From NCBI GenBank assembly GCA_011369445.1, contig DRQF01000169.1, positions 1,632-65,631 on the forward strand: 64,000 nt of DNA, given 5' to 3'. This document shows positions 1,853-5,298 of the stretch, in pieces. A program made the translations under genes and the position numbers. The notes beneath the pieces are model-generated. The model saw only the letters and a program-made list of their open reading frames with translations. It was not told where the DNA came from and ran no database searches. The DNA comes from Planctomycetota bacterium (lineage in GTDB: Bacteria > Planctomycetota > GCA-002687715 > DRQF01). Positions within the stretch are counted from its first letter, which is position 1. Each line of letters begins with the position of its first letter.

Positions 1853-2464
1853 TCACGCCTCGGCGGGATCGCCGATGTCAACGATGAGGATGATACGGTC
1901 GCGGTCGCCGGTGTTCTCGACGGAGTGCAGGGACCTTGTGTCGAAGACGACGGTCTCGCCTGGGCGATGGGCGTGGGGCGTGCCGTCGACCCAGACGGTG
2001 CATCCGTCACCAGCGACAAGGCCCAGGTGGATGCGGCAGATGGGCTGGTCGTAGACGTCGGAATGGGGAATGATCCGAGATCCTGGACTCACTCGGGAGA
2101 AGGCCGCGGCCGTGACCTCTTGGACGGCAAGGAGGTGGTCCGTCGTGAACGGGCACTTTTCCGCGAACCCGAGGATGCGGCCGTCCTCGTCCGTCGGCAT
2201 GGGCCCCTCACCCCGGTCCACGAGGGGGTACATGTCCCAATGGCCCGTGTAGTTCTGCGTAGCCCACCAAGTGAAGAAGGTGGTCTGGGGCAGGGCGACG
2301 GCTTCGTCTCGGAACCGTTCCCAGTGCTGGGCGAGGTCGGCCGCCGTCTTCTCCGCATACCGCATCAAGTCCATGAAATCCTCCCACCGGCTGTCTGCCC
2401 CTGCGTCCTCCCGTATGGGCTCCACCCGTGCCTCGAATAGACCCCGAGGATCGGCGGTTGTCAA
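1853..2464 (-). CDS. Aspartyl/asparaginyl beta-hydroxylase family (cupin-type 2OG oxygenase) protein
   Basis: 203-aa ORF. GSRIIPHSDVYDQPICRIHLGLV...VVFDTRSLHSVENTGDRDRIILIVD matches the PH-x-D ... H-x-x-N ... R-x-x-L-x-x-D pattern of Asp/Asn beta-hydroxylase domains. The start is uncertain: TTG at 2464 lacks an RBS, and an internal GTG (ARVEP) is preceded by GAGG. Confidence 0.6.
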   Translation of the reverse strand: MTTADPRGLFEARVEPIREDAGADSRWEDFMDLMRYAEKTAADLAQHWERFRDEAVALPQTTFFTWWATQNYTGHWDMYPLVDRGEGPMPTDEDGRILGFAEKCPFTTDHLLAVQEVTAAAFSRVSPGSRIIPHSDVYDQPICRIHLGLVAGDGCTVWVDGTPHAHRPGETVVFDTRSLHSVENTGDRDRIILIVDIGDPAEA

Positions 2465-2489
2465 GACGCGATGACGCGCCGCTCATGGA

Positions 2490-2867
2490 TCAGTCGACGA
2501 TGATGACGGGGTCGCGAGTGAAGATCTGTCGTGCCGCCCGGCGATTCCTCCGCGTCCCGAAGAGGAGGACGGGGCGAAACGTTCCCGTCGTTTTCGGACA
2601 GCGGATGGGGATCAGAAGCCGGACGGGCCGGTTCGGTACGCGACCGTCTGCGGGGACATGGCAGCCCCTTGCTGGTCGTTCTCCTCCCAAGCGGCGTTGC
2701 CGCGACTCGTCGTGTCGGCAATGACAATGGGCAGGAGTACCCGCAGGAGCGTCGTGTCGCGCCACAGCTTTCCGTTCGAGACGAAGGTGATGCACCGCGG
2801 ACGCACCTATGAGTTCCCGGCTCGCGTAGTCCCACCACTTCGACGCGGAGGACGATTGTTGTCGAGA
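2490..2867 (-). pseudogene. Coding-like signal without an intact ORF (candidate frameshifted gene remnant)
   Basis: Hand-counted third-position GC is about 84% in the frame of ORF 2612..2806 (VRPRCITFVSNGKLWRDTTLLRVLLPIVIADTTSRGNAAWEENDQQG...). It is about 79% in a different frame for 2490..2620 (LIPIRCPKTTGTFRPVLLFGTRRNRRAARQIFTRDPVIIVD*). The signal is again high in that second frame for 2796..2867 (SSASKWWDYASRELIG). No single frame is open with a start codon. I could not recognise the family. Confidence 0.25.
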
Positions 2868-2950
2868 TCATATTCCGATTTGAGCGTCTTCTTGGGGGCC
2901 AAGAGTGGCAACGATGCCGTGATGCGCCCTCCGTCCGGGATACCGTCCGA

Positions 2951-3781
2951 TCAGCGTTTCGGCAGCCACGCGTCCAACGCCCCGAGAAGAGCCTCCACCG
3001 ACTGGGCGACGAAGAGTCGGGGCTGGAGTTGGGTCGGGTCATAAGGCGTCGCCGCAATGTCGTCGACGTCGAAGGCCTGAAGTCGCCCCGCGCGGTCGAA
3101 GAGGGTGAGCTCGTCCACGGAGGAAAGGAGGCCCGCCCCGAAAGCCTTCGGATTCCCGTCTTCCATAACGACGCCGAACTCAAGGGTGTACCAGTACATC
3201 CTCACGATGCGTTCGACCTCGTCGTCGGTCTTCGCTCTCGACGCCGCGAGTCCGAACCGACGGCTGACGTCGGCGATCTCTGAATTTGTCAACGTGGCCG
3301 CATGTCCCACGAGTTCATACACGACGTCGGGCTCCGGAGTGTAGAACGGGCGGCTCGCATGCCGGATGCACTGAGTGGAGGGAAATGCGCTGCGGGCCAG
3401 ACTCTCGAGGAAAGCTCGCGGGGTCACCAGCCCCGCGACCGGGATCATTTCGAACCCGGAGGCTCGCCGCAGCAGGGGATTCAGGTCGACGAGTTGGGGG
3501 ATGGTCGTTTGAGAAAACGCCAGGCGATCGCGCAGCTCCACGATGAACCGAGAGGCTTTCTCGTCCTGAAGGGGGAGGAGACGGCCGAGGATGTGACGCC
3601 ACAGGGCGTTCTCTCGGGCGGTGTAGGTGATCCTGGGGATGGGCTGCCTCGTATGGTGGGACGCGGCAAGGCGAGCTATCTCGTTGCGACGTGCCCGGTA
3701 ATCCGGGTCTCGAAATCCGGGGTGGTCGGCATCGAGCCGCACGAGATCGTGGGGGACGGTGGGTTTGTCGGTGGAGTGCAT
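2951..3781 (-). CDS. phhA: Phenylalanine-4-hydroxylase (aromatic amino acid hydroxylase family), with an atypical metal-ligand position
   Basis: 276 aa. QCIRHASRPFYTPEPDVVYELVGH and YWYTLEFGVV align with the PAH family motifs Q-Y-I-R-H-x-S-x-P-x-YTPEPDxxHExxGH and YWFTVEFG. Confidence 0.85.
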   Translation of the reverse strand: MHSTDKPTVPHDLVRLDADHPGFRDPDYRARRNEIARLAASHHTRQPIPRITYTARENALWRHILGRLLPLQDEKASRFIVELRDRLAFSQTTIPQLVDLNPLLRRASGFEMIPVAGLVTPRAFLESLARSAFPSTQCIRHASRPFYTPEPDVVYELVGHAATLTNSEIADVSRRFGLAASRAKTDDEVERIVRMYWYTLEFGVVMEDGNPKAFGAGLLSSVDELTLFDRAGRLQAFDVDDIAATPYDPTQLQPRLFVAQSVEALLGALDAWLPKR

Positions 3782-4038: not shown

Positions 4039-5298
4039 ATGATGGCGACCATGATGATGCTGGCCATTCTCACCGTTCTGCTGCTGTCTCCCTGCTTGCC
4101 TTCCCAAGACGAGGCGTTCCGTTGGGAAACGGGTCTCTCGGAGGCTGAAACCCTGGCGAGGCTGAAGAACCTCCCATTGCTCGTCTATTTTCGCTGCCCT
4201 CCGTGACGCGACTGCAAGGCGTTTGATGCGCAGTTGGCGCATCCTCCGAAGGCGTTCCGCGAGCTGGCCAGGCGTTTCGTCTGCGTTCGGGTGACCGACA
4301 TGCGCGGTGTGGACCTGGATCGATACCGGTTCGACTTCGACTTGACATTCGCGATCCTGACCATGCACCCGGATGGGACGATCTATCACCGATTCGGTGG
4401 ACGAGACCACACGAGCCCGACTCGCTGGATCGCGATGAAGCCGCTCCTCGACGTGATGAGAGCCTCGTTGATACGGGACGCCGAGCACCGGAGGAACGGC
4501 GAGCCTCCTCCTGTCCGTCCTCGTCGGACCATCGAAGATTACCCCACCTGGAAGGAGTTCGTGGGAGGGCGCACGCTCGAGTGTGCTCACTGCCACCAAG
4601 TGGGCGAGCACGAGGTCGCCAGCGCTGAGCGTGCCGGTGGATTCGACCGCACCTCCATCTGGCGTTGGCCTCCACCGGACCGGATCGGACTCGTCATGGA
4701 TGCGACGGATCAGACCCGCGTCGCGTCGGTTACGCCTGGCTCCGCGATCGCTCGGTCGGGGATTCGGGCGAACGACCGGCTTGTGACCGTGGCGGGAATG
4801 CGAATCGCCAGCGTGACGGACATCCAGGCTGCTTTGAATGGCTTGCCGTCAGGGAAATGCGCGGCTTCCATCGAATTCGTTCGTGCGGGAAAACAGCGCG
4901 CAGTCCGAGTCGTGCTCGAGAAGGGGTGGAAACGAGGAGGACCGCTCACGTTTTCCTGGCGTCCGCTCAAGTGGGCGATGTCCCCCGCACCGGGGTTCGG
5001 GGGCACGGACTTGAAGGCCGAGCGGAAGAAGAGCTTGGGCATTCCCGTGGAGAACTACGCTTTCGAGATCGGCTACCTCGTCGACTGGGGTCGCAAGGCC
5101 CATCGGGGCCGCAATGCGCGCAAGGCAGGTTTGAAGGTCGGCGACGTCGTGACGTCCGTGAACGGGAAGACCGATTTCCGAGACCAGAATCACTTTCACG
5201 CCTGGTTCCGATTGCGATGTCGCGTCGGAGAGGTCGTCGAAATCGGAATCCTCAGGAAAGGCCGCCCCCGGGTTATCCGACTTCCCGTCGTGCAGTGA
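4039..5298 (+). CDS. Secreted thioredoxin-fold / CxxCH / double-PDZ protein; extended model reads TGA 4204-4206 as selenocysteine (UxxC)
   Basis: ORF track gives 4234..5298 (TTG start). The same frame is open from ATG 4039 and is interrupted only by TGA 4204-4206. The upstream part is a signal peptide followed by FRWETGLSEAETLARLKNLPLLVYFRCPP-TGA-RDCKAFD, a thioredoxin-like N-terminus with the TGA at the first Cys of CxxC. Downstream are CAHCH (4582-4596) and two PDZ-like segments (GSAIARSGIRANDRLVTVAG..., ARKAGLKVGDVVTSVNG...). Confidence 0.6.
4225..4243 (+). promoter_or_regulatory. Candidate bacterial SECIS hairpin downstream of the in-frame TGA
   Basis: GATGCGC-AGTTG-GCGCATC, a perfect 7-bp stem with a 5-nt loop containing G and U. 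The stem starts 18 nt after TGA 4204-4206 and the loop begins 25 nt after it. Confidence 0.4.

Follow-up and report, generated by a model that had tools for sequence, protein, structure and literature searches.

Several families of bacterial thioredoxins and thioredoxin-like oxidoreductases (Trx-like 1–3, DsbA-like, and Prx-like) carry selenocysteine (Sec) in UxxC or CxxU motifs, with Sec in place of a redox cysteine at the N-terminal end of helix alpha1, a SECIS hairpin within the coding sequence 16–37 nt downstream, and homologues that have Cys instead. The gene described here, at 4039–5298 of the window (the whole 64-kb stretch of DNA that we analysed), is alike in each of these respects, but its family differs in having a three-position motif, C/U-x-x-U-x-x-C, where the known families have a two-position one, and in being fused to a pair of PDZ domains and to a CxHCH motif that is invariant. 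Cys forms dominate in most Sec families, whereas in the clade sampled here Sec is invariant at the main position, in 68 of 68 genes.

The closest described system is the NCBIfam family NF041199, and the finding, although correct, concerns a family that has already been published and curated (NF041199; PMC13188914). The 2026 review of Zhang et al. lists it as a predicted selenoprotein with a CxxU motif and one Sec, citing the 2008 GOS survey (PMC13188914), and that survey (Zhang & Gladyshev 2008) contains a selenoprotein family named "Putative secreted serine protease MucD" (PMC2398784). Because the two share the CxxU motif and the reference, and because of the order of the table rows, NF041199 is very probably the GOS family; we note that Peng et al. 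2016 (PMC5029168) mention neither Planctomycetes nor the Trx7/PDZ family. The window protein is like NF041199 in domain order (Trx7 followed by two PDZ domains), in Sec position, and in the C-x-x-U context, and the window gene itself shows no difference from it; 28 of 68 related species, however, have a second Sec that is unrecorded in the review table, where the family has one.

The HtrA, DegP, DegQ, and MucD proteases and the site-2 protease RseP are alike in their tandem PDZ domains, which give the best structure and sequence matches, and in their periplasmic or exported location. We considered and rejected an HtrA/DegP/MucD serine protease, whose trypsin-like domain bears a His-Asp-Ser triad, as there is no protease domain in the Pfam search and the structure matches are limited to the PDZ tandem; the NCBIfam DegP, DegQ, and HtrA models score 27–55 bits against cut-offs of 416–756, and match only the PDZ parts at aa 218–326 and 357–418. 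Only the PDZ domains account for the earlier "MucD" label.

Our reading, which we hold with high confidence, is that 4039–5298 is one gene for a 419-residue exported NF041199 protein and probable oxidoreductase, that UGA 4204–4206 specifies Sec and the hairpin at 4225–4243 is its SECIS element, and that the 354-residue public record is an artefact. The UGA would be decoded as selenocysteine and the hairpin, lying inside the coding sequence, would serve as a bacterial SECIS element; by analogy with the established bacterial mechanism, its role would be to bring SelB-GTP-Sec-tRNA(Sec) to a ribosome positioned on the UGA. The predicted product, of about 46 kDa, begins with a signal peptide, followed by a Thioredoxin_7-type fold that contains the motif C53-P-P-U56-R-D-C59, the invariant CxHCH, and two PDZ domains (Table 1).

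Table 1. Positions in the window of the Trx7/PDZ selenoprotein gene and its features
Feature	Position	Strand	Basis
Full Trx7/PDZ selenoprotein CDS	4039..5298	+	Open frame; NF041199 match
Signal-peptide-like N-terminus (MMATMMMLAILTVLLLSPCLPS)	4039..4104	+	Hydrophobic core
Thioredoxin_7-type thioredoxin-fold domain, about aa 28–127	4120..4419	+	Pfam, profile match, homologue model
TGC, Cys53, -3 position of C-x-x-U-x-x-C	4195..4197	+	Codon table
TGA, probable selenocysteine codon, residue 56	4204..4206	+	TGA in 68/68 genes; Cys in distant homologues; structure alignments
TGC, Cys59, second Cys of canonical CxxC	4213..4215	+	Codon table, structure alignments, homologue model
Bacterial SECIS-type hairpin	4225..4243	+	Energy, spacing, covariation, published criteria, absence from Cys forms
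C-x-H-C-H (CxxCH) motif, aa 182–186, between Trx domain and PDZ1	4582..4596	+	Invariant in family
PDZ domain 1, aa 221–291	4699..4911	+	PF13180 E = 5.5e-14, two stretches; DegP/DegQ/RseP PDZ matches
PDZ domain 2, about aa 357–409	5107..5265	+	Second Pfam PDZ stretch; DegS/MamP PDZ parts; model

The reading frame and the domains it encodes

The frame that opens at ATG 4039 (or 4042) runs to the stop at TGA 5296–5298, spans 419 codons, one of them for Sec, and is interrupted solely by TGA 4204–4206; its read-through translation has PLLVYFRCPP immediately before the TGA and RDCKAFDAQLAHPP immediately after it. In the ORF list the gene begins at TTG 4234 and encodes 354 aa, and the public record HGY91332.1, named "PDZ domain-containing protein", is the same shortened product; the first 65 residues are missing from the public annotation, and HGY91332.1 is without the signal peptide, strand beta1, and the entire Sec/Cys redox centre. 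TTG 4234 falls inside the Thioredoxin_7-type domain and in the loop of the 4225–4243 hairpin. The 354-residue product is an ORF-calling artefact, and the result for the window is an annotation correction for HGY91332.1. A sequence-only reading of the window had already described the open frame with its single interruption, the start of the ORF track at TTG 4234, and the loss of both signal peptide and redox centre from the shorter form; we find all three as it described them, with the 354-residue form beginning in the middle of the thioredoxin fold. A tool-free reading of sequence can therefore recover a real selenoprotein, although not here a new kind of system.

We compared the window gene with 67 homologous loci from genomes of other species, making 68 genes in all; the loci come from Planctomycetota and Verrucomicrobiota, the same phyla as the NF041199 family. 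The same arrangement, a signal-peptide-like N-terminus and W..DL.AA...A....kPLLvvFR followed by TGA, is present in 67 of the 68 homologous loci, each from a different species genome, and is therefore far beyond chance; the protein sequence is conserved on both sides of the TGA across all 68. Among the matches listed, at least 120 database homologues cover just 74–86% of the read-through query and show the same truncation, and function prediction for them runs on decapitated proteins. Some of the homologue ORF calls begin directly after the TGA, and the starts lie at varying, non-homologous positions, not at the equivalent of 4234, while the N-terminal extension is shared; these shortened entries are likewise ORF-calling artefacts. 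ORF clustering within 7 kb on either side of the 68 loci revealed no conserved gene neighbour, the best cluster being present in eight loci.

These comparisons bear on whether TGA 4204–4206 could be a genuine stop, either because the locus is a pseudogene or an assembly error in the MAG, or because it encodes a 55-residue peptide and a separate 354-residue protein from TTG 4234. ORF callers and HGY91332.1 do treat the codon as a stop, TGA serves as an ordinary stop in this genome, also at the end of the gene in question, and some termination at a Sec UGA is to be expected under selenium limitation. Such a stop is hard to reconcile, however, with a TGA column kept in 68 independent assemblies between conserved stretches of protein, with a product that would start midway through a thioredoxin fold and lack signal peptide and redox motif, with a start codon lying in the loop of a conserved hairpin, or with the scatter of homologue start positions, and we consider it highly improbable.

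Read through the TGA, the protein matches the NF041199 model, "Trx7/PDZ domain-containing (seleno)protein", with 353.4 bits (cut-off 300, E = 1.5e-105), aa 28–415 aligning to profile positions 2–388 of 390, which is end to end, and it has the architecture of that family, an N-terminal Thioredoxin_7 domain and then PDZ domains. Pfam Thioredoxin_7 (PF13899) matches aa 28–89 of the read-through product at 34.0 bits, above the gathering cut-off of 27, and the domain therefore spans the TGA; the beginning of a thioredoxin-like fold upstream of 4234, as the sequence-only reading had it, is thus confirmed. The family profile also matches the disulfide isomerase 3fk8 over positions 28–127 (E = 1.2e-5), and the beta1 / CxxC / alpha1 arrangement is seen in the model of a Cys-form homologue, P0172. 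The signal peptide proposed upstream of 4234 likewise appears as a signal-peptide-like hydrophobic core with an equivalent in every reconstructed homologue, and it suggests that the protein is exported.

Between the thioredoxin domain and the first PDZ domain, all 32 Sec-form sequences compared have C182, H184, C185, and H186, and all 19 Cys-form sequences have C198, C201, and H202. The CxHCH motif is possibly a site of haem c attachment or of metal binding, although Pfam and NCBIfam searches of the window protein find no cytochrome domain in spite of its invariance. We also considered a magnetochrome (MamP-like) haem domain, from a weak match to the PDZ part of MamP; magnetochromes have a conserved histidine just upstream of CxxCH, the family consensus has none, and this candidate was rejected.

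Two PDZ domains are indicated by several searches: PDZ_2, PDZ_6, and PDZ each give two stretches in Pfam, the PDZ parts of the NCBIfam DegS and MamP models match aa 357–409, and a structural model of the 354-residue ORF has a second PDZ-like beta/alpha unit. With that model as query, Foldseek matches are confined to the DegP, DegQ, and RseP PDZ tandems, with none for the Trx or CxHCH parts. The domain content suggests a probable periplasmic selenol/thiol-disulfide oxidoreductase, with PDZ domains that would bind the polypeptides serving as substrate or partner.

The in-frame TGA and the redox motif

The column containing TGA 4204–4206 is TGA in 68/68 genes; neither of the other stops, TAA and TAG, nor any sense codon occurs there. 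Since the assemblies are independent, this excludes a miscall or an assembly error. In 16 of 20 distant full-length homologues the same column holds a Cys, within FRC-[VI]-P-C-x-x-C. Very probably the TGA is a true selenocysteine codon, and the proposal of the sequence-only reading that this is a candidate selenoprotein is supported by the conserved TGA column, by the Cys in distant homologues, and by the SECIS-type hairpin that follows.

The motif in the window protein has three redox positions, Cys53, Sec56, and Cys59. In alignments with solved Thioredoxin_7-type structures (2lst, 2k8v, and 1sen were used), Sec56 lines up with the first Cys of the CPYC motif of 2lst and of the CGAC motif of ERp18; Cys59 is in the initial turn of helix alpha1 and, like its counterpart in thioredoxins, has a Lys after it. 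We judged the position of the motif on a confident model of the Cys-form homologue P0172 (pLDDT 90.2); in that model beta1 comprises residues 56–61, C62-V-P-C65 is coil, and the helix runs from residue 66, such that the Sec-equivalent Cys is directly before helix alpha1. The best explanation of the modelled arrangement is that Sec56, as the N-cap residue of helix alpha1, is in the nucleophilic position, corresponding to the first Cys of the canonical thioredoxin CxxC. The placement of Sec on that Cys in the sequence-only reading agrees with both the alignments and the homologue model; its description of the motif as UxxC is right about the first CxxC position but incomplete, as the motif is really C-x-x-U-x-x-C, which the literature labels CxxU.

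The residue inserted at a UGA is not identifiable from sequence alone, and the codon might be read through as something other than Sec, either by near-cognate or suppressor decoding (Trp, Cys, or Arg) or under a reassigned code in which UGA is Trp or Gly. It is consistent with this that searches of the 64-kb window of the MAG and of approximately 1.1 Mb of homologous loci (10 kb on either side of each) yielded no tRNA-Sec, selA, selB, or selD: with ARAGORN, neither the window nor any of 60 loci has a tRNA-Sec, and tblastn with approximate E. coli SelA/SelB/SelD probes gives only weak GTPase-domain matches in two loci (L027 and L032). Such genes normally lie elsewhere in the genome, however, and their absence from these segments is therefore uninformative; complete Sec-insertion gene sets have been reported in several Planctomycetes (PMC4807772). 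A scan of the window for other recoded TGAs, using GC3 and nearby Cys codons, was too noisy, a redox-motif context being present only at 4204–4206.

Several observations weigh against insertion of a residue other than Sec. TGA terminates the 4039–5298 gene itself and 27 of the 62 complete family genes, which indicates a standard code, and the codon at the -3 position is only ever TGA or TGC/TGT; a changed genetic code is therefore excluded, in agreement with the sequence-only reading, which had noted that TGA is an ordinary stop here. Alternation with Cys, at the main column in homologues and at the -3 column within the family, is the signature of Sec and Cys and not of Trp or Gly; a bacterial SECIS-type hairpin accompanies the TGA and is absent from the Cys forms; and the family is curated as a selenoprotein. 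We regard non-Sec read-through as most unlikely.

The hairpin downstream of the TGA

The hairpin, GATGCGC-AGTTG-GCGCATC, has seven perfect pairs and a predicted energy of -10.5 kcal/mol; the 5' arm is at 4225–4231, the loop AGUUG at 4232–4236, and the 3' arm at 4237–4243. Its stem starts 18 nt and its loop 25 nt from the TGA, so that the perfect 7-bp stem-loop and the spacing described in the sequence-only reading are reproduced. The published bSECIS criteria (PMC13188914) call for a loop of 3–9 nt, a stem of 4–16 bp, a spacing of 16–37 nt, and an MFE of -7.5 kcal/mol or lower, together with a G within the first two loop positions; with a 7-bp stem, a G at loop position 2, a spacing of 25 nt, and the energy given above, the window hairpin conforms to the model, as had been suggested, and all four published criteria hold in 66/68 genes.

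The stem-loop might instead be a by-product of the conserved codons for the peptide F-D-G-Q-V-V-R-P, or some other RNA element, for instance one that causes a translational pause. It does lie in conserved coding sequence; three loop columns, A41, G42, and U44, show no variation, which constraint on the Gln codon CAG could also explain; and there is no match in Rfam, either for 4150–4320, even at E <= 10, or over the whole window at gathering thresholds. Against this, paired positions co-vary in a manner that forces changes of amino acid, with G/E/A at +8 accompanying V/A/G at +12. Across the 68 genes 94.3% of cells are paired, compared with 27–47% in slid registers, and there are 41 compensatory cells over four pairs, a number that is reached in none of 500 shuffles. 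The hairpin is also missing from 11 Cys-form genes, in which the same register forms an average of 2.6 of seven pairs as opposed to 6.6 of seven in the Sec-form genes, even though the Cys-form homologues encode a related peptide (FDxxV). Together with the fit of spacing, loop, and energy to the published model in almost every gene, these observations make a hairpin of some other kind very unlikely, and favor the SECIS element.

Twin-Sec relatives

The -3 codon, which is that of Cys53 in the window, is TGA in 28/68 species and TGC or TGT in the other 40, with no other codon represented; at least seven switches between Sec and Cys at this position are required on the tree. The 28 genes with UxxUxxC bear a second hairpin, and the single-Sec genes are without it. 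Twin-Sec proteins with UxxU are known, in eukaryotic SelL and, as listed in the 2026 review, in bacterial Prx-like, FmdB-family, and NF041115 metal-binding proteins (PMC13188914). The 28 family members are like these in having two Sec two residues apart, but differ in that their UxxU is part of UxxUxxC within a Thioredoxin_7 fold, and in that the first Sec repeatedly toggles with Cys. The twin-Sec form may be an unreported addition to the known family.

We tentatively suggest, at a little short of an even chance, that the redox centre is a three-position C/U-x-x-U-x-x-C in which the first position has been switched between Cys and Sec these seven or more times, and that each Sec-bearing lineage has an extra SECIS-like hairpin within the 18-nt interval that separates the main UGA from the main SECIS; there would thus be two recoding units only 9 nt apart and a stem-loop for each. 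The extra hairpin has the form AAGGAC-UGCxx-GUCCUU, and the loop of the main hairpin is 34 nt from the upstream UGA, a distance within the range of 16–37 nt. The variant offers a compact natural system for the handling by SelB and SECIS elements of two UGAs separated by 9 nt. The window gene is of the ordinary single-Sec form, and the cultured Saltatorellus ferox Poly30, with accession NZ_CP036434.1 and the motif peptide UEPUR, is among the twin-Sec carriers.

Reading frame, family and probable recoded codon

As the sequence-only reading had described, the frame opening at ATG 4039 is interrupted by a single TGA before its terminator, and reading through this codon gives MMATMMMLAILTVLLLSPCLPSQDEAFRWETGLSEAETLARLKNLPLLVYFRCPP-U-RDCKAFDAQLAHPP.... 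The mechanical ORF list carries the downstream TTG start noted in that reading, which falls within the loop of a hairpin following the TGA and yields a product of 354 aa; the public protein of 100% identity, HGY91332.1, is the same truncated product. With a cysteine put in for the TGA, Pfam recognizes two PDZ domains and a Thioredoxin_7 domain that straddles the TGA, which bears out the thioredoxin-like fold proposed there. We regard the match to the NCBIfam equivalog model NF041199, "Trx7/PDZ domain-containing (seleno)protein", as decisive.

Features of the Trx7/PDZ selenoprotein gene in the window
Feature	Nucleotides	Strand	Residues	Remarks
Reading frame	4039–5298	+		419 codons including one Sec codon
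Probable Sec codon, TGA	4204–4206	+	56	
Hairpin GATGCGC-AGTTG-GCGCATC	4225–4243	+		7 perfect pairs, -10.5 kcal/mol; UGA-to-loop spacing 25 nt
Hairpin loop	4232–4236	+		
Start in ORF list, TTG	4234	+		
C-x-H-C-H (C-A-H-C-H in the window; CxxCH type)	4582–4596	+	182–186	
Terminator, TGA	5296–5298	+		
Thioredoxin_7 (Pfam)			28–89	34 bits; gathering cut-off 27
NF041199 (NCBIfam)			28–415	353.4 bits; curated cut-off 300; profile positions 2–388 of 390

This family is already known, since NF041199 is curated and is listed in a 2026 review of prokaryotic selenoproteomes with the motif CxxU, one Sec and the example MCX6587993.1 (PMC13188914). The review's entry cites the 2008 GOS survey, in which a new selenoprotein family, "Putative secreted serine protease MucD", was described that comprised 2 Sec sequences and 12 Cys homologs and likewise had the motif CxxU (PMC2398784). 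We infer that the two names denote one family from their common motif, common reference, the order of table rows, and PDZ content, from which the name "MucD" would have arisen. The window gene is thus an ordinary, mis-annotated member of a published and curated selenoprotein family, and only the twin-Sec, two-hairpin variant of its relatives may extend the record.

Mis-annotation is general among the relatives. Each of the best 120 database homologs covers only 74–86% of the read-through query and none has a Trx annotation; these listed Sec-clade relatives are deposited N-terminally truncated (about 309–375 aa), under names that include "PDZ domain-containing protein", "predicted metalloprotease with PDZ domain", "RseP" and "serine protease Do". 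Their called starts are non-homologous, and several lie directly after the TGA equivalent, as in the database protein P0026 ("MDCSAFDGQL..."). We translated in frame upstream of each match at 68 homologous loci, each from the genome of a different species, mostly Planctomycetota MAGs with some Verrucomicrobiales, Akkermansiaceae or Omnitrophota, and one complete genome, that of the cultured Saltatorellus ferox Poly30. The region upstream of the TTG equivalent is conserved at 67 of the 68 loci, comprising a hydrophobic N-terminus, then W..DL.AA...A....kPLLvvFR, and then the redox motif. The remaining locus, L050 (match 2163–3107), matches from query residue 41 on and has many stops in its upstream frame, and at L061 and L064 the read-through stops early (275 and 283 aa); pseudogenization, a frameshift or an assembly error may account for these three cases.

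In the 68 genes, namely the window gene and those of the 67 loci, the codon at the main column (that of U56) is TGA in every case, with not a single TAA, TAG or sense codon. Three codons upstream (position -3) there is a TGA in 28 genes and TGC or TGT in 40, while three codons downstream (position +3) there is TGC or TGT in 67 and ATG in one. An exhaustive profile search gave about 400 representative clusters at E <= 1e-30, and the best 150 of these include about 20 full-length proteins (391–469 aa) of a more distant branch, annotated with Thioredoxin_7 and PDZ domains; in 16 of the 20, the column of the window's TGA is a Cys within FRC-[VI]-P-C-x-x-C. At the level of sequence, these patterns establish Sec/Cys pairs both at the main column and at -3, flanked on either side by conserved sequence. 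The true terminators of 62 complete family genes are TGA (27), TAG (26) and TAA (9), and the window gene itself uses TGA both for Sec and as its terminator; the genetic code is thus standard, and reassignment had rightly been discounted. The selenoprotein interpretation, under which selenium would be incorporated at the window's UGA, is accordingly supported. No tRNA-Sec, selA or selD lies within the 64-kb window or the homologous loci; full Sec-insertion gene sets have been reported for other Planctomycetes (PMC4807772).

The main hairpin and the twin-Sec relatives

The perfect 7-bp hairpin pointed out downstream of the TGA is present as described. The 68 genes align without gaps over 72 nt surrounding the TGA, and the arms of the hairpin occupy columns 34–40 and 46–52. 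Standard pairs form in 94.3% of cells, compared with 27–47% in registers that displace the 3' arm by 1–3 columns. Both sides have changed in 41 cells in four pairs (for example GGGC/GUCC, GAAC/GUUC, GCGC/GCGC and GGCC/GGCC), and none of 500 column shuffles attains the observed pairing or covariation. Such compensation entails linked amino-acid substitutions in the residues encoded by the two arms (G/E/A at +8 with V/A/G at +12), a pattern that protein constraint alone can hardly account for. In the loop, A41, G42 and U44 never vary and column 43 holds either G or U, which agrees with the "G followed by G or U" of the published bacterial SECIS model (PMC13188914); 66 of the 68 hairpins fit that model by all four of its criteria, the other two having a bulged stem. 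A negative control with 11 Cys-form genes in the same register gave a mean of 2.6 of 7 pairs, against 6.6 of 7 for the TGA genes. No Rfam family corresponds to this element.

NF041199 is recorded with one Sec in the review that names it (PMC13188914), whereas 28 of the 68 species here carry two, as U-x-x-U-x-x-C (L001, L004, L006, L008, L009, L012, L014, L017–L021, L023, L025, L026, L028–L030, L034–L036, L039, L047, L049, L055, L058, L065 and L067), the motif lying about 40–85 nt upstream of each match start. These twin-Sec genes have an extra hairpin (hairpin 1) directly after the main UGA, typically AAGGAC-UGCxx-GUCCUU, which the CxxU genes lack: 86% of its cells are paired in UxxU genes, and 49% in the same register of CxxU genes, which is the level of the shuffled and slid controls of the CxxU alignment. 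No convincing hairpin 1 occurs in the window gene, as expected of a single-Sec form. A neighbour-joining tree built from 60 complete members shows at least seven Sec/Cys state changes at position -3, and in every sister contrast (L004/L029 versus L005–L013, L012/L021/L023 versus L007, L018 versus L002, and L017 versus L015/L042) hairpin 1 is better in the Sec lineage.

The confinement of hairpin 1 to UxxU genes and its quality in Sec sister lineages suggest a separate stem-loop for each UGA, such that the upstream UGA would be served by hairpin 1 after 9 nt and the main UGA by the main hairpin (hairpin 2) after 18 nt. Hairpin 2 might also serve both UGAs, as its loop is 34 nt from the upstream one and within the published 16–37 nt range; covariation in hairpin 1 is weak, at three compensatory cells only.

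Redox centre and remainder of the protein

The window motif is C53-P-P-U56-R-D-C59-K, and the UxxC designation given earlier holds insofar as U56 and C59 align with the first and second Cys of the canonical CxxC of solved Thioredoxin_7-type proteins, but the literature term is CxxU, and C53 is an additional cysteine that makes both patterns present. Matches to the Thermus thioredoxin 2lst (...VYFHSEHCPYCQ...) and to ERp18/TXNDC12 (2k8v and 1sen; ...IIHKSWCGACK...) are individually weak (E-values 0.02–0.03) and concur with the Pfam assignment. AlphaFold models the Cys-form homolog P0172 with confidence (pLDDT 90.2, pTM 0.86), placing strand beta1 at 56–61, C62-V-P-C65 as coil, and helix alpha1 from residue 66; the Sec-equivalent residue would thus occupy the helix N-cap, in agreement with the nucleophilic position of thioredoxin, with C59 in the first helical turn and C53, the additional cysteine, where beta1 ends. 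Conservation, in contrast, partly favours another pair: C53 and position 56 are kept best, because the third Cys is absent from L047 (6125–6196; Met, in U-E-P-U-K-D-M) and from several Cys forms (P0183, P0185 and P0189). Both U56–C59 and C53–U56 are candidates for the two positions that would exchange a disulfide or selenylsulfide.

A confident model of the truncated ORF (pLDDT 93.8) has as structural neighbours only the PDZ tandems of DegP, DegQ, HtrA and RseP, and sequence searches concur. No protease domain was found, NCBIfam protease models scoring far under their cut-offs and matching the PDZ region alone, so the old "MucD" label should not be taken as a function. Eight members from Verrucomicrobiales, Akkermansiaceae and Omnitrophota (L051–L054, L056, L057, L060 and L066) reach 659–692 aa through a C-terminal extension of ~240 aa that is lacking in Planctomycetota members (about 415–450 aa). 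The CxHCH motif does not vary among 32 Sec-form and 19 Cys-form members; in form it corresponds to a c-type haem attachment site, or it could be a metal site, and neither Pfam nor NCBIfam reports a cytochrome domain. No gene neighbour is conserved across the 68 loci. From its domain content, the protein is most likely an exported selenol/thiol-disulfide oxidoreductase whose PDZ domains would hold substrates.
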